Source: an uncultured Chloroflexia bacterium (GTDB taxonomy: Bacteria > Chloroflexota > Limnocylindria > Limnocylindrales > CSP1-4). Taken from it: a stretch of DNA of 64,000 nt. Positions 3,285 through 50,426 of this stretch are shown piece by piece. Both the position numbers and the translations under genes were made by a program. The notes beneath the pieces are model-generated. The model was not told the DNA's origin. It saw only the letters and a list, made by a program, of their open reading frames with translations, and searched no databases. Position 1 is the stretch's first letter. Each line of letters opens with the position of its first letter. The stretch covers positions 538,576 to 602,575 of the forward strand of contig CAVRZS010000004.1 in assembly GCA_963725745.1 (NCBI GenBank). The letters run 5' to 3'.

Positions 3285-3499
3285 CTGTCGCCGAACCCGC
3301 GCAGGTGTTTGTCCGCGTCCCGAGCGATCGGCGCCTTGCCCGCGTACAGCCCGCCCTTCGGGCGCGGCCGGGCGTCGCCCATGACCGCCTGGCGGATCGA
3401 CTCGCGGATGACCTCGGCCTCCGAGACGCCTCGCTGGAGGGCAGCACGGCGAAGCGCGGTCTTGAGTTCGAGGGGCAGATAGACCGTCGTCTTGTCCAT
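3281..3499 (-). CDS. vapB: Ribbon-helix-helix antitoxin (VapB/CopG type)
   Basis: 72-aa track ORF MDKTTVYLPLELKTALRRAALQRGVSEAEVIRESIRQAV shows a beta-strand/helix/helix RHH pattern. It lies directly upstream of, and is translationally coupled to, the PIN gene. Confidence 0.8.
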   Translation of the reverse strand: MDKTTVYLPLELKTALRRAALQRGVSEAEVIRESIRQAVMGDARPRPKGGLYAGKAPIARDADKHLRGFGDR

Positions 3500-3582
3500 G
3501 GATATATGGTACCACCGGTGGTACCAGCGACGACACGTTCACCGTCCCCGGCGGTCTGGCCTGCCCGACTACGATCGGAGCC

Positions 3583-6572: not shown

Positions 6573-8282
<1,710 letters not shown>

Positions 8283-41197: not shown

Positions 41198-42016
41198 TCA
41201 GGCGTCCAGCTCGCCACGTAGCTGGGCGACGGCCCGCTCCAGCGCCTGCCGAGCGGGCGCGGCCGAATATGGCGCGCCCTCGATCGCATCCTCGAGCGAG
41301 ACCTCGCCTGCCGCCACCTGCGCGCCGAGCTCGGCGATCGTCCGGATCCCGTCGAGCGTCGCTTCCACGAACGGTCGATCCGCATGGTCGCCGTGGCCGG
41401 GCACCACGACCGTGCGCTCGCCGACACGTTCCAGGACCGCCTCGAGCGTCGCCGGCCAGTCCATCGGGAAGCCGTCGCCGAAGGACGGGGGAGCGCCGTT
41501 CTCGACCAGATCGCCGGCGCACACAACGTCGGCGTCCGGAATCCGGATCACGATGTCGTTGTCCGTGTGGCCGCGCCCGAGGTAGGCAAGCTCGATCGCG
41601 CGCCCGTCGAGGTCGATCGTGGCGCGGTCGGCGAACGTGACGTCCGGGGGATCGAGCACGACGTCTGCGAGCTCCGCAGCCAGCTCCGGCATCGCGTCGC
41701 TGACCCTCGAACGCTGCAGCTCGCCCGTGAGCCGGACCATCGCCGCGCATCGCTCGTGACCCCAGATCACCGCCGGCCGGAACACGGAGTTGCCGAACGC
41801 GTGGTCGAAGTGGCCGTGGGTGTTGATGACGATGCCCACCGTCGGCGATCCCAGGTCCCGGAGGTCGTCGACGATCTCTCGGGCCTGCGCCCGCGTGGAC
41901 CGCGTGTCGACGATCACCGCCGCGTCGCCACCCAGGATCGCGACGATGTCCTGGTCGAAGAAGTCATACCGGCGGACGAACACGCGCTCGCCGACCTCGG
42001 TCCATCGAAGGCTCAC
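41198..42016 (-). CDS. MBL-fold metallo-hydrolase
   Basis: GTG 42016 gives VSLRWTEVGERVFVRRY.... INTHGHFDHAFGN is the HxHxDH motif, followed later by VVPGHGD. The upstream part of track ORF 41198..42589 is antisense to ykoE and the riboswitch. Confidence 0.8.
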   Translation of the reverse strand: MSLRWTEVGERVFVRRYDFFDQDIVAILGGDAAVIVDTRSTRAQAREIVDDLRDLGSPTVGIVINTHGHFDHAFGNSVFRPAVIWGHERCAAMVRLTGELQRSRVSDAMPELAAELADVVLDPPDVTFADRATIDLDGRAIELAYLGRGHTDNDIVIRIPDADVVCAGDLVENGAPPSFGDGFPMDWPATLEAVLERVGERTVVVPGHGDHADRPFVEATLDGIRTIAELGAQVAAGEVSLEDAIEGAPYSAAPARQALERAVAQLRGELDA

Positions 42017-42065
42017 CCCGGCATCGTACTCACGGGGCGGGTGTAAACTCGGCCGACAATCGAAG

Positions 42066-42160
42066 ATCCGCCTCCGGGGAGCGCGCGAGCGCTGAGAGTG
42101 TGGTGCAGACCACAGACCCGCGGAACCTGATCCGGTTCGTACCGGTGTAGGAAGCAGGCC
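42066..42160 (+). promoter_or_regulatory. TPP (THI-box) riboswitch
   Basis: GGGGAGC..GCGCUGAGA..(hairpin GUGGUGCAGACCAC)..ACCC..GCGGAACCUGAUCCGGUUCGUACCGGUGUAGGAAGC contains the hallmark CUGAGA, ACCC and ACCUGAUC.GG.U...ACC.G.G.AGGnA elements in the right order. It is followed by an 11-bp GC hairpin (42174..42199) plus TTCGTGCTT, and by GGAGG 12 nt before the ykoE ATG. Confidence 0.85.
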
Positions 42161-42227
42161 CGCAGCCACAGCACGCCGTCCCCGGCATCGGGGGCGGCGT
42201 TCGTGCTTGACGGAGGTCCAGGGATCG

Positions 42228-42824
42228 ATGGCGACGACCGTTTCGAGCCCCAACGCGGCGGCGCCCGCCTCGAACGCGTGGCGGACTCGCGACATCGTGG
42301 TGACCGCCATCATCGGCGTCGTCTTCGGCGTGGTCTTCTGGGCCTGGAACCTGGCCTGGGGTGCGTTCGACGCCGTGTTCGTGGTCGCGCCCCCCGCGAA
42401 GGACCTCCTGTACGCGGTGTGGCTCGTGCCGGCCGTCCTGGCGCCGTACATCGTCCGCAAGCCCGGCGCGGCCGTGTTCGCGGAGCTCGTGGCCGCCGGC
42501 GTGTCGGTGATCGGCAGCCCGTGGGGACCCGACACCCTGCTGTCTGGGTTCGTCCAGGGCGCGGCTGCGGAGCTCGTGTTCGCGTTCACGCTGTACAGGC
42601 TGTGGACGTTCCCGGTCCTCGCCGCGGCGGCGGTCGCGTCAGCGGCCGGAGCCTGGATCCACGACTGGGCGATCTATTACCCGGATGCATCGCTCGAGGT
42701 CCAGCTCGTCCGCGGCCTGATGATGGCGATCTCGGCCGTCGTCATCGTCGCCGGCGGCTCCGTGGTGCTGGTACGTGCCCTGCGCCAGGCGGGCGCCCTG
42801 GAGGGGTTCCCAGCTGACCGCTGA
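42228..42824 (+). CDS. ykoE: ECF transporter S component, YkoE-like (thiamine-precursor/HMP uptake)
   Basis: ATG 42228 (the track ORF begins at TTG 42207) follows the SD GGAGG. The protein has about six TM helices. Its position directly behind a TPP riboswitch and ahead of a duplicated ECF ATPase matches the ykoEDC arrangement. Confidence 0.75.
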   Translation: MATTVSSPNAAAPASNAWRTRDIVVTAIIGVVFGVVFWAWNLAWGAFDAVFVVAPPAKDLLYAVWLVPAVLAPYIVRKPGAAVFAELVAAGVSVIGSPWGPDTLLSGFVQGAAAELVFAFTLYRLWTFPVLAAAAVASAAGAWIHDWAIYYPDASLEVQLVRGLMMAISAVVIVAGGSVVLVRALRQAGALEGFPADR

Positions 42825-44322
42825 GCCGGCGGTTGGCCGCCCCGGCGCGATTCGTGCCCACGGGCTGGCCTTCCGGTTCGCGAGCCGCCCGGTCTTCGCC
42901 TTCGAGGACGTCTCGTTCGAGGTTGAGCCGGGCGAGTGCCTGCTCATCGTCGGACCGTCCGGCTCGGGCAAGAGCACCCTCGCGCTCGCGCTCGCGGGCC
43001 TCGTCCCGCGTGAGTTCCCCGGGGAGTGGCGTGGGCGGCTGACGGTCGACGGCCTCGATCCGGCCACCGCGTCCGGGGTCGAAGTGGCCGCGAGGGTCGG
43101 CCTCGTGTTCCAGGACCCGGAGAGCCAGCTGGTGATGGACCGGGTCGAGGACGACGTGGCGTTCGGGCTCGAGAGCCGGGGCTGGGACCGGGCGGCGATG
43201 CACGCGCGGGTCCCCGAAGCGCTGGGCGAGGTCGGCCTGGCCGGGTTCGAGCGGCGACGCACCACGAGGCTCTCCGGCGGGCAGCAGCAGCGGCTCGCGC
43301 TGGCGGGCGCGCTGGCGCCGCGACCGGGCATCCTCGTGCTCGACGAACCAACTGCCAACCTCGACCCGCCGGCGGCGCGGGCGTTCGCGGCGAGGCTCGC
43401 CGCACTGCGGGCGGCGCGGGCGGTCACGATCGTCCTCGTGGAGCACCGGGTCGACGTTGCGTGGCCCATCGCGGACCGGGTGCTCGCGCTCGGTCCCGAG
43501 GGCCGGCCGATCGACGTGGGCCGGCCGGCGGACGTCCTGGCGCGGTCGCGCTCGAAGCTGGTTGCCGCCGGGGCGTGGCTGCCCGATGAGGATGTGGCGC
43601 AGCCTCCGGCGGTCGCGCACTCGGCCCTGGCCTCGGGGCCCGTCGTCCTCGCCGCCCACGACCTCGCGTTCGCCTACGACGGCGGGGCCGACGTCGTGCG
43701 CGGCGTCGACTTCGCCCTGACGCCGGGGGAGCGGGTCGCCCTCGTTGGCACCAACGGCTCGGGCAAGTCGACGCTGGCGAAGCTGCTGGTCGGGCTCCTC
43801 CGCCCGCGCGATGGCGAGGTTCGCCTGGCCGGCGACGCTCCGGCCGACCTGGCGCCGGCCGAGCTGGCGCGGCGGGCGGCCTACGTGTTCCAGGACCCGG
43901 AGCAGCAATTCGCGCGGCTGCGCGTGGACGAGGAGGTGATGCTGGGCCTCGACGACGCCGGGCGGCGCCAGGCCGCGGCCCTGATGGACCACATCGGGCT
44001 GCCGCTCGGCCTGTTCGGGCCGCGTAGCCCGTACACGCTCTCGGGCGGCGAGCAGCGGCGCCTGTCGCTGGCGACGGCGCTCGTGCGCAGCCCGTCGGTC
44101 ATCGTGCTTGACGAGCCCACGTTCGGCCAGGATCGCCGGGGCCACGACGCACTGCTCGACATCCTCCGTGCCCATGTCGACGCCGGGGCGGCAGTGCTCG
44201 CGGCGACCCACGACGAGCGGTTCATCGAGGCGTTCGCGAGCCGCATCGCTCGCTTGGAGCAGGGCCGGATCGTGCACGTGGAGACGGCCGACGGGCGGGC
44301 TCACCACCGCGGAGATCGTCGC
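42775..44322 (+). CDS. ykoD: Duplicated ECF/ABC ATPase (YkoD-like, two nucleotide-binding domains)
   Basis: NBD1 carries GPSGSGKSTLA, LSGGQQQRLALA and ILVLDEPTANLD. NBD2 carries GTNGSGKSTLA, LSGGEQRRLSLA and VIVLDEPTFGQD. In this assembly it reads through, in frame, into the T component (track ORF 42775..45090, 771 aa). Confidence 0.85.
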
Positions 44323-45090
44323 GTGACGGCGATCATCGATCGCTACGAGCCGTCCGAACGACAGCTGGCCAGCGTCCTCGGCCGGACGAGCCCGCTGGTC
44401 AAGCTGGCCGTCGCCCTGGTCTGGCTCGTCGGCCTCGCGTTCACGCTGGACCTGCTGCCGCCGGTGTTCATCACGATCGTCGTCCTCGGGGCCGGCCACG
44501 TCCTGGGCGGGATCCCGGGCGCGCGCCTCGCGACTGGCGTCGGGCCGCTGTGGATCGCGGCCCTCGGCATCGGCCTGTTCAACGCCCTGTTCTCGGGCTC
44601 GAACTCGGACCCGACCCTGCCGGTGGCGTTCGTGATCGGCCCGTTCACCGTCACCTGGGCGGCCCTGGCCGCGGGCGTTGGCCTCGCGGCACGGGTCATC
44701 GCGATCGCGTCGGTCGGCGTGGTGTTCGGCCAGACGACGGACTCGACCCATCTCGTCGACGCGCTCGTGCAGCAGGCCCGGGCGCCCGAGCGGTTCGCCT
44801 ACGGCGCGCTGGCGGCGTACCAGGCGATCCCGAGGCTCGCCGAGCAACTCACGACGCTGCGCCAGGCGCGCCGCATGCGCGGGCTGCGCTGGAGCTGGCA
44901 CCCGCGACTCCTGGTGGGACTGCTGGTGCTCGCGATCCGCCACGGGGATCGGCTTGCCCTGGCGATGGACGCGCGCGCGTTCGGTTCGGGGCCTCGGTCG
45001 CGGTACCGCGTGGTGCACTGGACGTGGCTCGATGCGGCGATCGCGGTTGGGGCTGCCGTGGTGCTCGCGATCGCGCTGCGGCTGGGCTGA
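44323..45090 (+). CDS. ykoC: ECF transporter T component (YkoC/EcfT-like), in frame with ykoD
   Basis: From GTG 44323: VTAIIDRYEPSERQLASVLGRTSPLVKLAVALVWLVGLAFTL...ARAPERFAYGALAAYQAIPRL...RQARRMRG (EcfT-type coupling-helix region). The start forms GTGA with a TGA in the +1 frame (see findings). Confidence 0.7.
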   Translation: MTAIIDRYEPSERQLASVLGRTSPLVKLAVALVWLVGLAFTLDLLPPVFITIVVLGAGHVLGGIPGARLATGVGPLWIAALGIGLFNALFSGSNSDPTLPVAFVIGPFTVTWAALAAGVGLAARVIAIASVGVVFGQTTDSTHLVDALVQQARAPERFAYGALAAYQAIPRLAEQLTTLRQARRMRGLRWSWHPRLLVGLLVLAIRHGDRLALAMDARAFGSGPRSRYRVVHWTWLDAAIAVGAAVVLAIALRLG

Positions 45091-45179
45091 GTCCGGTCGG
45101 GTTGGTTCCGCCGCGGCGCCCGCCCTACACCGCTCCGCTGCGCTCCGGTCCGCGCCGCTGCGCGCCCGTGCGGGCCGGC

Positions 45180-45382
45180 TGGTCGCCCGGCGTTCACTCG
45201 AGCGGTTGGTCCGGCGGATTGGTCGCCCGGCGTTCAGGTCAGCGGTTTGCGGCCCCGTTTCCGGCGGATTGGTCGCGTGGCGTGCAGAACGATCCCGTTA
45301 TCCGCCGCAGTGAACGCCCGGCGATCAGGCACGAGAGGCGCAGCGACCAACCACGAGAGGCGCAACGAACGCCCGGCGACCA
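45180..45382. repeat. Array of five copies of a 17-bp imperfect palindrome TGnnCGCCnGGCGnnCA embedded in longer direct and inverted repeats
   Basis: The copies are tggtcgcccggcgttca (45180), tggtcgcccggcgttca (45220), tggtcgcgtggcgtgca (45270), tgaacgcccggcgatca (45311) and cgaacgcccggcgacca (45366). Start-to-start spacings are 40, 50, 41 and 55 bp. Extra repeats are ccggcggatt x2, cacgagaggcgca x2 and gaccaggcgcc x2. Confidence 0.8.
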
Positions 45383-45473
45383 GGCGCCGACCAGGCGCCA
45401 AACCAGGCGCGACGGATCGGGTCACCAGACGCGAGCCGTGCCATGATCGAAGCAACGACCGACTGAGCGACGG

Positions 45474-46805
45474 ATGAGGTGGAGCGTGGCCGACGGCCGG
45501 ACGATCGTGTTCTTTCCCGAGGGCGCCTACGGGCCGACCAACAACTGCGTCGGCATCGGGGACGTCCTGCGCCGACGGGGCCACCGGGTAGTGTTCATCG
45601 TCGAGGAGTCGTTCGCGGGCAACCTCGAGGCCAAGGGGTTCGAGGAGCGGCTGATGCGCCTCGGGCCGCCACCCGCCGAGCCGGAGGTCCCGGGCCAGTT
45701 CTGGATCGACTTCATCCGCGACACGGCGCCGGTCTTCCGCAAGTCGACGCTCGAGCAGATCGCCGAGTTCATGCAGCCGACCTGGCAGGCGCTGATCGAC
45801 GGGTCCAAGTACGTGAACCCGCGACTTGCGGAGATCATCGGGGAGCTCGAGCCCGACGTCGTCGTCGAGGACAACGTCGTGTCGTTTCCCGCGGTCATCG
45901 CCAGCGGCCGGCCGTGGGTGCGGATCGTGTCCTGCAACCCGGCCGAGGTCCGCGACCCGATCATCGCGCCGTTCTCGTCGGGCTATCCGGCCGCCGACCC
46001 GAGCCGATGGGCGATCTTCCGCGCCGAGTACAACCGCGTGCACGCCGACGCCTGGCACGACTTCGACGCCTTCTGTCGCGACCACGGCGCCCCGGGCCTC
46101 GCCAACACGCCGTTGGGCGCCGAGTTCATGCACGAGTCGCCGTTCCTGAACCTGTACGCCTACCCGGCGGAGGCCGACTATCGCCGCGCCGAACCCCTGG
46201 GCCCGACCTGGCATCGGCTCGATTCCACGATCCGGGCGACGGACGGGACCTGGTCGCTGCCGGAGCATCTGGCAAGCCGCTCGGGCGCCCTCGTCTACCT
46301 GTCGCTGGGCTCGCTTGGCTCGGCGGACGTCGAGCTGATGCAGCGTTTGGTCGACGTCCTCGGGCGGACCGACCACCGGGTCATCGTGTCCAAGGGGCCG
46401 CTGGCCGACCAGATCCGCCTGCACGACAACATGGCCGGCGAATCGTTCCTGCCCCAGCCGGCGGTGCTGCCGCAGGTCGACCTCGTGATCACGCACGGCG
46501 GCAACAACACGGTGGTCGAGAGCTTCCACAACGGCAAGCCGATGGTCGTCCTGCCGCTGTTCTGGGACCAGGTCGACAACGCGCAGCGCGTCCACGAGAC
46601 GGGCTTCGGGCGACGCCTCCCGGCGTACGCCTTCCGCGACGAAGAGCTGACCGGAGCGATCGACGCGCTGCTGACCGACGAGGCCCTGAAGGCTCGCATG
46701 ACCGCAATCGCCAACCGGATGCAGGCCGCTCGCGGCACCGAGCGCGCCGCCGACCTGATCGAGCGCGTCGCGACCACCCAGGCGCCGATCCTCGACGGGC
46801 GATGA
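45474..46805 (+). CDS. GT1-family (MGT/UDP-glycosyltransferase-like) glycosyltransferase
   Basis: 443-aa track ORF. The N-terminus reads IVFFPEGAYGPTNNCVGIGDVLRRRGHRVVF. The C-terminal nucleotide-sugar motif reads LPQVDLVITHGGNNTVVESFHNGKPMVVLPLFWDQVDNAQRV. Confidence 0.85.
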   Translation: MRWSVADGRTIVFFPEGAYGPTNNCVGIGDVLRRRGHRVVFIVEESFAGNLEAKGFEERLMRLGPPPAEPEVPGQFWIDFIRDTAPVFRKSTLEQIAEFMQPTWQALIDGSKYVNPRLAEIIGELEPDVVVEDNVVSFPAVIASGRPWVRIVSCNPAEVRDPIIAPFSSGYPAADPSRWAIFRAEYNRVHADAWHDFDAFCRDHGAPGLANTPLGAEFMHESPFLNLYAYPAEADYRRAEPLGPTWHRLDSTIRATDGTWSLPEHLASRSGALVYLSLGSLGSADVELMQRLVDVLGRTDHRVIVSKGPLADQIRLHDNMAGESFLPQPAVLPQVDLVITHGGNNTVVESFHNGKPMVVLPLFWDQVDNAQRVHETGFGRRLPAYAFRDEELTGAIDALLTDEALKARMTAIANRMQAARGTERAADLIERVATTQAPILDGR

Positions 46806-46964: not shown

Positions 46965-47177
46965 ATGCGACCGATGACGGCACGAGAACGCACAACATTC
47001 TTCGATCGGCTGGTTGGGATGCGCGAGGCCTACCGCTCCCTCGATGCCCTCGACCGCGCCGGGATCACATCGATTACCGAGGCGATCGCGGACGCCGAGC
47101 GGGAGCTGGCGGCCACCGACACGGAAGCCGACGCCGTGTCGACCGACCCTGCGCCGACCGCCCACCACCCCGTCTGA
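46965..47177 (+). CDS. Small hypothetical protein
   Basis: 70-aa track ORF (a second ATG at 46974 gives MTARERTTFFDRLVGMREAYRSLDALDRAGITSITEAIADAERELAATD). The composition is helical and protein-like. I recognise no family. Confidence 0.35.
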   Translation: MRPMTARERTTFFDRLVGMREAYRSLDALDRAGITSITEAIADAERELAATDTEADAVSTDPAPTAHHPV

Positions 47178-48552: not shown

Positions 48553-49116
48553 GTGGACCAGCGAGGTCTCGTCGAGCGAGCGCAGCGGGGCGATCATGAC
48601 GCCTTCGCGGTGCTGGCCGGCGCGTCCATCGCGCGGCTGGACTCGGCCGCCCGCCTCATCGTCCGGGACCAGGACCTCGCGCGGGACGCGGTCCAGGACA
48701 CGCTCGTCCGCTGCTGGCGCGACCTGCCCACGTTGCGCGACCCGGTCGCCTTCGACGGCTGGCTGCACCGGCTCCTCGTCCATGCCTGTCTCGACCTCGT
48801 TCGCCGTCGACGCCGACGGGTGATGGAGGTCGAGCTCACCTCGCTGCACTCGCCGGCGATCGGCGACTTCAGCGGCCAGGTGATCGACCGCGACCTCCTT
48901 GATCGCGCGCTGTCCGGGCTCGCCCCGGACTGGCGCGCGATCGTCGTCCTGCACTACTTCCTCGAGGTGCCGCTGCCGGAGGTGGCGGCAAGCCTCGGGA
49001 TCCCGCTCGGGACCGCGAAGTCGCGGCTGCACCGGGCGATCGGCGTCCTCCGCACGGCCGCCGGCAACGACGCCGTCCAGACCGGCATCGCGATCGCGGA
49101 ACGGAGGCCGGCATGA
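48553..49116 (+). CDS. ECF (group 4) RNA polymerase sigma factor (second copy)
   Basis: 187-aa track ORF. Region 2 reads DAVQDTLVRCWRDLPTLRDPVAFDGWLHRLLVHACLDLVRRR. Region 4 reads IVVLHYFLEVPLPEVAASLGIPLGTAKSRLHRA. The stop overlaps the next gene start (ATGA at 49113). Confidence 0.9.
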   Translation: MDQRGLVERAQRGDHDAFAVLAGASIARLDSAARLIVRDQDLARDAVQDTLVRCWRDLPTLRDPVAFDGWLHRLLVHACLDLVRRRRRRVMEVELTSLHSPAIGDFSGQVIDRDLLDRALSGLAPDWRAIVVLHYFLEVPLPEVAASLGIPLGTAKSRLHRAIGVLRTAAGNDAVQTGIAIAERRPA

Positions 49117-50426
49117 CCCAGTTCGACCGCTTCGAGCGCGAGCTCCCCGTGGCGCTGGGCGACGTGGCCGGCACCGGGGCGCCCGACTACCTCACCGACA
49201 TCCTCGGGCGGACCGCCCGCACCCGGCAGCGACCCGCCTGGGCCTCCCTCGAAAGGTGGCTCCCCATGGACCTCGCAACCCCGCGGGCGGCGACCGCCCG
49301 TGTCCCGTGGCGCGCGGTGGCCGCGCTCGCCCTGATTGCCTTCCTGCTCGTTGCCCTGGTGGCCATCTACGCCGGTGGCCAACGCCATGTCCCGCCGCCA
49401 TTCGGCCCGGCCGCCAACGGCCTGATCCCGTACGACGTCGACGGCGACATCTTCGTCGCCGACCCGATCGACCGGCGCTAGTCGCCTCCTCTCCGGCGGG
49501 CCCGCAAACGACTACATCCCGACGCTTCTCTCCCGATGGCACCCACGTCTCCTTCCTCCGGGCGTCGTCCGACTGCCCCACCCCCGGCGACGTGTGCCCG
49601 GGGGGCGAGGAGATCATGGTCGTGGCCGCTGACGGCAGCGGCGCGCACGCGATCAGCGGCCAGCCGCTCGTCGGCCTGCGGGTCGCGAACTGGGTCCCCG
49701 ACAGCCGCAACGTCCTCGTCGGCTACGTCGACGACGGCGTGTTCCGGCTGGTGGAGTTGCCGATCGACACCGGAACGCCTCGCCATGGTCGCCGAGGGTT
49801 TCGAAGTCGATTGCGGCCGTGTTCCGACCCGCCGGCCGGCGACGAGCTCCTCGTGCGTGGCCTCGTGGACGGCAACGTCGGGCCTGTATCGCATGAACGC
49901 GGACGGCTCGGACCTGCGGCTGCTCGCGAACGCCGCCACGCCCGGCGAGACGCTCGGCGACAACCAGGACCTCAACTTCCCGGCCTATGCGCCCGACGGC
50001 AGCCGGATCTTCTTCAACCGCTACGTCCCGGCGGCCCAGACGATCCAGGCCTGGGTCATGAACCCCGATGGCTCCAACCCGCACCGGTTCAACCAGGCGG
50101 GACCCGTCTGCTGCTGGTGGGAGGGCGAGATGGCGCCGTCGCCTGACGGCAAGTCGGTGCTGATGTGGCGCGTGTCACCCGACAGCGAGGACGGTGGCGG
50201 CATCACCGTGTATCCGGCGGACGGGACCGGCCCGGGACGGTTGATCGGCCCCGACCTGGCGGATACCGGCCACTGGGCCTGGGCACCCGACTCGACCCGC
50301 GTCCTCGTGAACCACAACGACGCCGCGCAGGGCGGCCAGGTGCTGATCGACCCTGCCACCGGCACCTGGGAACCGGCACCGTGGCATGACAACGCCGAGC
50401 CCGACTGGCAGCGCACCGCGCGCTGA
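49113..50426 (+). pseudogene. Anti-sigma / TolB-like beta-propeller paralogue carrying multiple +1 frameshifts
   Basis: The N-domain plus TM is in track ORF 49113..49481 (...VPPPFGPAANGLIPYDVDGDIFVADP). TGASRLLSGGPANDYIPT is in the +1 frame. FSPDGTHVSFLR...VELPIDTGTP is in the frame of ORF 48899..50146. LYRMNADGSDLRLL...SPDGKSVLMW...DWQRTAR* is in ORF 49536..50426. The blades align with the intact paralogue at 32473..33747. Confidence 0.75.

Follow-up and report, generated by a model that had tools for sequence, protein, structure and literature searches.

ERIC sequences (enterobacterial repetitive intergenic consensus, also named IRU) are imperfect palindromes of about 127 bp, present in tens of copies per enterobacterial genome. 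In the Correia elements of Neisseria and other miniature inverted-repeat transposable elements (MITEs), the target-site duplication is defined and the parent family of insertion sequences (IS) can be recognised. The repetitive extragenic palindromes (REPs), known from enterobacteria, Pseudomonas and Stenotrophomonas and divided into GTAG and CGTC superfamilies, lie mostly between unidirectional and convergent open reading frames (ORFs). They form inverted dimers 20-100 bp apart, and their clusters reiterate units plus flanking DNA; REPs of the GTAG type have been reported in a member of the Chloroflexi, Thermomicrobium roseum (Di Nocera et al. 2013, PMC3733652). REP doublets which form hairpins are defined as REPINs (PMC3337134). 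In this study, a repetitive array between the gene ykoC and a glycosyltransferase (GT) gene was analysed in a 64-kb stretch of DNA from an uncultured Chloroflexia bacterium (contig CAVRZS010000004.1), and this whole stretch is called the window below. With good probability, the array is a single member of a family of interspersed palindromic repeats, lineage-specific and non-coding, of the same kind as REP/BIME (bacterial interspersed mosaic element) clusters, REPINs and ERIC, and it has been amplified locally by unit duplication.

The family to which the array belongs shares several traits with REP/BIME elements: the units are short, imperfect, extragenic palindromes, they lie mostly 3' of genes in co-directional or convergent gaps, their presence among related species is uneven, and they are clustered in alternating orientation and reiterated with bits of flank. 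Unlike the free singletons and dimers of REPs, the family has a fixed four-box architecture of 148 nt. With ERIC it shares a length of 100-150 bp, imperfect palindromy, an intergenic position, probable transcription and conservation across species, as well as the lack of a known transposase and of a target-site duplication. However, the sequence is unrelated, the phylum is different and ERIC has no regular four-box substructure.

Box architecture and dispersed copies

When the whole window was searched with the pattern TGNNCGCCNGGCGNNCA, allowing at most one mismatch, five boxes of the form TGnnCGCCnGGCGnnCA were found, at 45180, 45220, 45270, 45311 and 45366, and no others. The original prediction, made from the sequence alone, had placed five motif sites at these same positions; it can be added that three are exact and that those at 45270 (TGGTCGCGTGGCGTGCA) and 45366 (CGAACGCCCGGCGACCA) carry one mismatch each. 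By chance 1.49 sites would be expected in the window and about 0.005 in the 203 nt (45180-45382) which hold all five. Three boxes face one way and two the opposite way, with spacings of 40, 50, 41 and 55 nt, in agreement with the predicted 40-55 bp.

Boxes 1-4, designated A-D in Table 1, are spaced 40-50-41 nt and extend over 148 nt, the ends of which are mutual inverted repeats of about 30 nt. The same spacing recurs at the orthologous loci L002, L062 and L063 (L numbers designate loci in the fetched DNA) and at the non-orthologous loci L017 and L043, and the four boxes in the window are therefore regarded as one canonical element; a subfamily with spacings of 51-41-51 is represented by L036 and L056. 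The family consensus of the box is 17 bp, TGAACGCC-N-GGCGTTCA, with a conserved tail, AACCGCYGsAG, on the inner side, and the palindrome is perfect in L036 and has one mismatch in L017 and L056. With its tails a box spans about 39 nt, and it is thus a short (20-40 bp) imperfect palindrome of the REP type. The sub-repeats listed in the original prediction were likewise all recovered. Its left and right halves, described there as mutual inverted repeats, are 81% complementary in repeat I2 (45179-45205/45302-45328), 90% in I3 (45176-45195/45367-45386) and 94% in I4. The direct repeat ccggcggattggtcgc... occurs twice (family D1, 89%), as does cacgagaggcgca (45330-45342 and 45352-45364), and the two copies of gaccaggcgcc plus aaaccaggcgcg correspond to a repeat of 11 nt x 3 found by Tandem Repeats Finder (TRF) at 45377-45410.

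Alignment of the units revealed a conserved block longer than the 17-mer and gave the family pattern CGCCSGGCGTTCA-NNNN-RGCGGWT (CGCCSGGCGTTCANNNNRGCGGWT), with which one genome per bacterial and archaeal species was scanned for exact matches. Of the 55 loci found, 15 are in eight metagenome-assembled genomes (MAGs) of related uncultured Chloroflexia/Chloroflexi, Limnocylindria-like in character; two of these (L008 and L053, the latter the same as L002) are the orthologous site and the other 13 lie elsewhere. Within 150-200 nt, each related match shows 3-4 boxes and an inverted end as its partner. The alignment of the loci covers the whole segment of about 150 nt, with the internal boxes and a GAGAGCA motif that recurs. 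The matches in other taxa are single, partnerless boxes in unrelated phyla, as expected for chance. A genome-wide search for the motif had been proposed; the scan across species revealed scattered copies in related genomes, and the window itself contains the array only.

The dispersed copies bear directly on the possibility that the array arose by purely local slippage and has no relatives elsewhere. Local tandem reiterations are indeed present (20 nt x 3, 22 nt x 2 and 11 nt x 3), but the core four-box module is common to 13 non-orthologous loci in other genomes. Slippage as the only explanation, which had been named as an outcome that would overturn a regulatory role, is refuted for the core module and has next to no chance of accounting for the array; only the flanking reiterations and box 5 can be explained in this way. 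Box 5, the 22-nt x 2 duplication and the tandem repeats at both edges are such local reiterations. Box 5 falls in an insertion specific to the window in comparison with L002, in which both box 5 and the 22-nt x 2 duplication are lacking.

All copies are intergenic. Among about 14 loci none was found in a divergent gap, at least three are in convergent gaps (Table 1) and the rest in co-directional gaps, usually directly after a stop codon, which is the placement typical of REPs with their avoidance of divergent gaps. An element located just after a stop codon is probably transcribed together with the upstream gene. The 20 flanking genes, as classified with Pfam, are functionally unrelated; they include PolX, thiolase, NCS1 permease, agmatinase, GlyRS, PspA, serpin, transaldolase, Rho, PIG-L, amidohydrolase, CapA, an OmpR-type regulator, HD-GYP and a Fe-S assembly protein, and neither a transposase nor a shared regulator was found among them. 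The unrelated neighbours and the convergent gaps speak against a regulon.

The ykoC-glycosyltransferase spacer in relatives

The orthologous locus was obtained from nine relatives by way of homologous GT proteins, and L008 was added from the pattern matches. The gene order is conserved (two-component system, ADH, metallo-beta-lactamase, ykoE/D/C, GT, small ORF, PAS-GGDEF, aldehyde dehydrogenase), and the number of boxes in the ykoC-GT spacer varies: five in the window, four in L002, about four in L008, four degenerate ones in L062 and eight in L063, where the left unit is present in 5-6 tandem repeats at a period of 41 nt. The spacers of L001 and L064 are short (about 80 and 136 nt) and lack boxes, and in L003, L065 and L066 a DrrAB-like ABC-2 exporter operon is located between ykoC and the GT gene, also without boxes. 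The comparison of this spacer in relatives, which had been suggested earlier, recovered the element in L002, L008, L062 and L063, but not in L001 and L064, nor in the rearranged L003, L065 and L066. In a neighbour-joining tree of the GT genes the empty loci L001 and L064 are nested among filled ones, so that ancestral presence followed by two deletions would be the most parsimonious history. The element has been gained, lost and resized over time, its box number changing by tandem duplication with a period of about 41 nt, and whole elements have been deleted. The combination of a GT with an exporter resembles an antibiotic (macrolide-type) self-resistance or detoxification module, which hints at the role of the GT.

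The 5-6 tandem 41-nt units of L063, each with a palindrome, superficially resemble the sopC repeats of the F plasmid. Among the interpretations originally put forward for the array was a centromere-like (iteron/parS-type) one; the boxes would then be comparable to parS, sopC or an origin of replication, and a partition or initiator protein would bind them. However, the setting is chromosomal and syntenic, the approximately 20 kb, partially annotated, around the array (37.2-57.2 kb) yielded neither a partition nor a replication gene, copies are scattered over many intergenic loci and the array is dispensable in close relatives. We consider this interpretation extremely unlikely.

The same original proposal included a multi-operator array. 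In this reading the boxes would be cooperative sites for a dimeric transcription factor controlling the GT or the ykoEDC operon. The perfect or nearly perfect 17-bp palindromes of L036, L017 and L056 would suit such a function, the spacings of 40-41 and 50-51 nt are near whole helical turns and the boxes are better conserved than the spacers. Against this, the same module stands beside unrelated genes at the 13 non-orthologous loci and in convergent gaps, where no promoter would be expected, and the loci are homologous in the inter-box stretches as well, which argues for common descent and not for convergent operators. Moreover, L001 and L064 keep the GT gene and its leader without an array, the last box lies anywhere between 16 nt (L062) and 115 nt (window, from box D) away from the leader, no candidate regulator is adjacent and the region has no sigma-70-type promoter consensus. 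An operator array thus has only a slim chance of being correct, and the element is probably not a dedicated operator of the GT. Resemblances of the boxes to the operators of Rex and LexA, to parS and to integron attC were rejected, as there are misfits in half-site spacing or consensus.

Copying, mobility and folding

In one MAG (contig_1582), L020 5573-5819 and L030 5682-5928, located 48 kb apart, share 247 nt with 99.2% identity; outside this segment they are unrelated, save for older, diverged tandem units at the edge. Near-identity over a discrete unit indicates recent copying or gene conversion. The shared segment reaches about 30 nt to the left and 40 nt to the right past the element defined by the boxes and terminates in a second, partial right-end half-site (CGGCGTTCCACG); as it exceeds the boxes, the copied unit may be longer than 148 nt. 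In L015, two element clusters (3392-3561 and 7421-7640), 4 kb apart, flank a PolX gene region, and the pair is also present on the JGI contigs L059 and L061, so that these insertions are common to different samples.

The ends of the elements are often associated with tandem repeats. Such repeats start within the terminal half-site and take in adjacent flank in L010, L020, L030, L043, L048 and L060, and overall they abut the ends of 8 of 18 copies, with periods of 11-41 nt and 2-6 units. Tandem repeats cover 16% of the sequence near the element ends and 1.3% of a control, a difference that overstates the enrichment since the control is mostly coding DNA; the association is therefore based on the repeat units themselves, which directly take in the terminal half-site. 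They may have been left by the copying mechanism, or hairpins may have induced slippage. A slight trend for the outer half-sites to vary together with the opposite end, and not with their own box, was seen on data too sparse to be used.

Among 11 well-bounded copies, the 3-bp flanks match in two, and no longer target-site duplication was found. This is relevant to the view that the element is a classical MITE, i.e. a deletion derivative of an IS that is moved in trans by a DDE transposase recognising terminal inverted repeats of about 30 nt, with ends of the type 5'-(C)TG...CA(G)-3'. A degenerate MITE was the closest of the three interpretations first offered, as the array does belong to a dispersed non-coding element with inverted ends. 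The family has MITE-type traits: terminal inverted repeats, small size (about 150 nt), no ORF and multiple copies, with TG...CA termini at many of these and near-identical copies inside one genome. As in the Correia elements, it is dispersed in intergenic regions and may be able to alter the expression of neighbours. However, a consistent target-site duplication was not seen, the outermost half-sites are the most variable part, whereas the tips recognised by DDE transposases are usually the most conserved, and no full-length IS with such ends, and thus no parent IS, was found among the loci fetched. Scattered copies with target-site duplications, which would have made the array simply a MITE, were in this way half borne out, the copies being present and the duplications not. 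The element resembles REP/BIME, REPIN or ERIC at least as much as a classical MITE, and the MITE reading, although it deserves some weight, seems unlikely to us.

The lack of a target-site duplication suggests an enzyme of the HUH/RAYT type (RAYT, REP-associated tyrosine transposase) or recombination. The most plausible candidates for the route of spread would be a hairpin-recognising, single-strand HUH/RAYT-like transposase, or recombination or gene conversion between copies.

Several observations weigh against placing the array among the interspersed palindromic repeats of the REP kind. Read in the orientation of the tag, the bases adjoining the box in 22 terminal units are GCAG (6), GGAG (4), CGAG (3) and others, i.e. 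mostly G[C/G]AG and never the GTAG or CGTC of the REP superfamilies. The copy number appears to be low, with 1-4 loci matching the strict pattern per MAG of about 2.5 Mb, one extra cluster only (L015, 3453-3561) in about 250 kb of incidental sequence and a single copy in the window, and a JGI metagenome scan with a family-specific 24-mer pattern returned three contigs, two of them orthologous to L015. Classical REPs, in contrast, number in the hundreds. A tblastn search of about 600 kb of fetched DNA with E. coli RAYT and IS608 TnpA found nothing below E = 1, although this was a weak test with two queries. Finally, the conservation of the boxes above the neutral level could reflect a host function, e.g. 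protein binding.

The degree of this conservation depends on the pair compared. The element in the window is 81% identical to that of L002 (130/160 positions, one gap), compared with 62% for four-fold degenerate sites of the GT gene and 52% for the spacer left of the element. Other orthologous pairs are 59-69% identical, no more than non-orthologous copies, and the constraint on the boxes thus acts at the level of the family and not of this locus in particular. Across copies, boxes with their tails are about 70% identical and the spacers between them about 54%. We would give rather little credence to the four-box module being a host-maintained protein-binding cassette, or else a third REP superfamily without the GTAG/CGTC tag and with a mobilising enzyme of its own. 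In such a cassette, a nucleoid-associated protein or a domesticated transposase could bind cooperatively to the 17-bp palindromes, which are phased at about four and five helical turns (40-41 and 50-51 nt). The palindromes might then insulate operons from each other, or terminate transcription between them, in these Chloroflexota, which are very GC-rich and have no canonical intrinsic terminators.

The interspersed palindromic repeat, which we prefer, is in several respects close to REPINs. Like these (Bertels and Rainey 2011, PMC3116915; PMC3337134), the element has two inverted palindromic ends and a spacer, which makes one long hairpin possible, it shows no target-site duplication, and it combines persistence at an orthologous site across species with copying within a genome. 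It differs in having two further internal boxes, and the single-copy RAYT partner by which REPINs are defined is putative here. Boxes A and D form the inverted ends, and the L056 copy folds end-to-end with z = -4.4. The whole array in the window folds barely better than shuffled sequence (z = -1.9 as RNA and -1.3 as DNA), and the large cruciform or long hairpin that had been proposed is thus possible, but weakly indicated at this copy.

The third interpretation originally offered was a structured RNA. It could be a cis-regulatory leader, a 3'-UTR (untranslated region) element or a small RNA. The inverted repeats would permit long hairpins, and the usual site after stop codons makes transcription with the upstream gene probable. 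However, Rfam gave no match to the array either at the gathering score or at E <= 5, and only a thiamine pyrophosphate (TPP) riboswitch and a tRNA elsewhere in the window. The consensus fold pairs both ends, but compensatory changes were seen in 3 of 25 pairs and the covariation term was +1.94, i.e. positive. With almost no covariation, the modest z value of the window copy and an architecture that varies freely from four to eight boxes, membership in a known structured RNA family is not supported, and we regard a dedicated RNA function as very unlikely.

As an interspersed repeat, the element in the window would be a passenger between the end of the thiamine-related ykoEDC operon and the leader conserved in front of the GT gene. 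Judging by REP and ERIC elements, its hairpins at the 3' end of the ykoEDC transcript would most likely bring about termination, insulation or mRNA stabilisation.

Neighbouring genes and meaning of the repeat family

The window has a G+C content of 71%, and the ykoC-GT gap extends from 45091 to 45485, the upstream ORF ending at 45090 and the GT gene likely starting at 45486. The Pfam domains of the flanking genes agree with their earlier assignment as ykoC and GT1, and it is correct that no neighbouring gene explains the array. The features of the locus are collected in Table 1.

Table 1 Features of the array, its copies and the surrounding genes (coordinates are those of the window unless a locus is named)
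Feature	Location	Strand	Evidence or remark
20-nt x 3 tandem (CCGCGCCGCTGCGCGCCCGT)	45130-45189		TRF, repeat family D7; abuts and overlaps the left end of the element
Canonical 148-nt element, boxes A-B-C-D	45180-45327	+	Spacing match to other loci, alignment, I2
Box A (U1), TGGTCGCCCGGCGTTCA with inner tail CTCGAGCGGTT	45180-45207	+	nhmmer E = 1.7e-6; fits family pattern CGCCSGGCGTTCANNNNRGCGGWT
Box B (U2), TGGTCGCCCGGCGTTCA, tails on both sides (CCGGCGGAT...GGTCAGCGGTT)	45209-45247	+	Extended palindrome; D1, D5
Box C (U3), TGGTCGCGTGGCGTGCA, one mismatch, 5' tail CCGGCGGAT	45259-45286	+	Aligns with L002 TGAACGCCGGGCGTGCG
Box D (U4), ATCCGCCGCAG with TGAACGCCCGGCGATCA	45300-45327	-	Inverted box A, right end of the element; nhmmer E = 5e-8
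22-nt-period duplication, CACGAGAGGCGCA twice	45330-45364		D3, D6; missing in L002 and L008 (alignment gap)
Box 5 (U5), CGAACGCCCGGCGACCA, extra right-end box	45366-45382	-	Exact reverse complement of 16 nt of U1/U2
11-nt x 3 tandem (CGACCAGGCGC)	45377-45410		TRF; begins within the outer half of box 5
Conserved GT leader, not part of the repeat	45440-45485	+	GCCATGATCG ... GAGGTG, then GTG at 45486
GT leader in relatives	L001 4655-4708; L002 9950-10000; L003, L062-L064 immediately 5' of GT start
ECF-transporter ORF, 2 ABC_tran + CbiQ	42775-45090	+	Pfam; 771 aa
TPP riboswitch	42065-42171	+	Rfam RF00059, 61 bits; directly 5' of ykoE-like permease gene
End-abutting tandem repeats	L048 5770-5877; L030 5621-5723; L010 4262-4359, 4530-4598; L063 2582-2790; window 45130-45189, 45377-45410
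Convergent-gap copies	L010; L020; L048		L010 amidohydrolase / pyridine-nucleotide oxidoreductase; L020 DUF7847 / zincin; L048 PIG-L / CapA
DrrAB-like exporter pair, divergent from GT	L003 7364-9627; L065 524-2787; L066 467-2742		ABC_tran + DrrA1-3_C, ABC2_membrane_3
Small-ORF counterparts	L002 11639-11845; L001 6167-6373; L063 4460-4666

Upstream of the array, the ykoD-like double ATPase and the ykoC-like CbiQ permease of the energy-coupling factor (ECF) transporter form one ORF in the window, and in relatives they are split into two genes (476 aa and 255 aa in L002, 495 and 255 in L062). The single ORF is either a genuine fusion or the result of a stop loss or frameshift in the assembly. The position of the TPP riboswitch 5' of the ykoE-like gene indicates that the transporter is thiamine-related. 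A metallo-beta-lactamase-fold ORF on the opposite strand, listed as 41198-42589, overlaps the riboswitch, and its real start is therefore probably further downstream.

The downstream gene encodes a glycosyltransferase of the GT1/MGT family with UDPGT, EryCIII-like_C and Glyco_tran_28_C domains (Pfam). Its frame is that of the ATG at 45474, and its start is most likely the GTG at 45486; a GAGGTG ribosome-binding site precedes this codon, which also agrees with homologues of 439 aa. There are hundreds of homologues with 77-92% identity; the few named ones are from Candidatus Limnocylindria, a class of Chloroflexota, and the long contigs which bear them are from soil MAGs labelled 'uncultured Chloroflexia'. 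The leader of the gene, about 55 nt with the pattern GTGCCATCATCG ... GACCGA.TGAGCGACG.A.GAGGTG followed by GTG, is kept in most of the aligned relatives, including those with an empty site (L001, L064) and the rearranged L003; in the alignment L065 is out of register and L066 poor. The leader may hold the promoter of the GT gene itself (-10-like CATCAT) or a regulatory 5' UTR. A scan of 44800-45800 found neither a sigma-70-type promoter consensus nor an intrinsic-terminator consensus.

Further downstream, 3' of the GT gene, a 70-aa ORF (46965-47177, + strand) has counterparts of 68-70 aa, without Pfam match, in several relatives, and in the DNA of this region the window and L002 are about 73% identical. 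The window also has an extracytoplasmic function (ECF) sigma factor (Sigma70_r2/r4), followed by a 122-aa ORF without Pfam match which may encode an anti-sigma factor (48553-49481, + strand). This pair lies between the PAS-GGDEF gene and the aldehyde dehydrogenase, and the genes called at the corresponding place in L002 do not include it.

The kind of element described here is well known and the current understanding is not overturned by it: an ordinary class of bacterial repeat accounts for the striking look of the array, which is mildly unusual in its regular four-box architecture, its helical-turn spacing and the absence of the GTAG tag. A full-text literature search on repeats in Limnocylindria or MITEs in Chloroflexi found nothing relevant, and this is apparently the first interspersed palindromic repeat family described in the uncultured Limnocylindria-like Chloroflexota, a lineage that is abundant in soil and of which only MAGs are known. 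Its recognition guards against a wrong annotation of the array as a regulatory or centromere-like site for the GT. Such repeats are useful as markers for strain typing and assembly breaks, and can affect mRNA 3' ends and the insulation of operons. If a cognate enzyme were found, REP/RAYT-type biology would extend to a new phylum-level setting.

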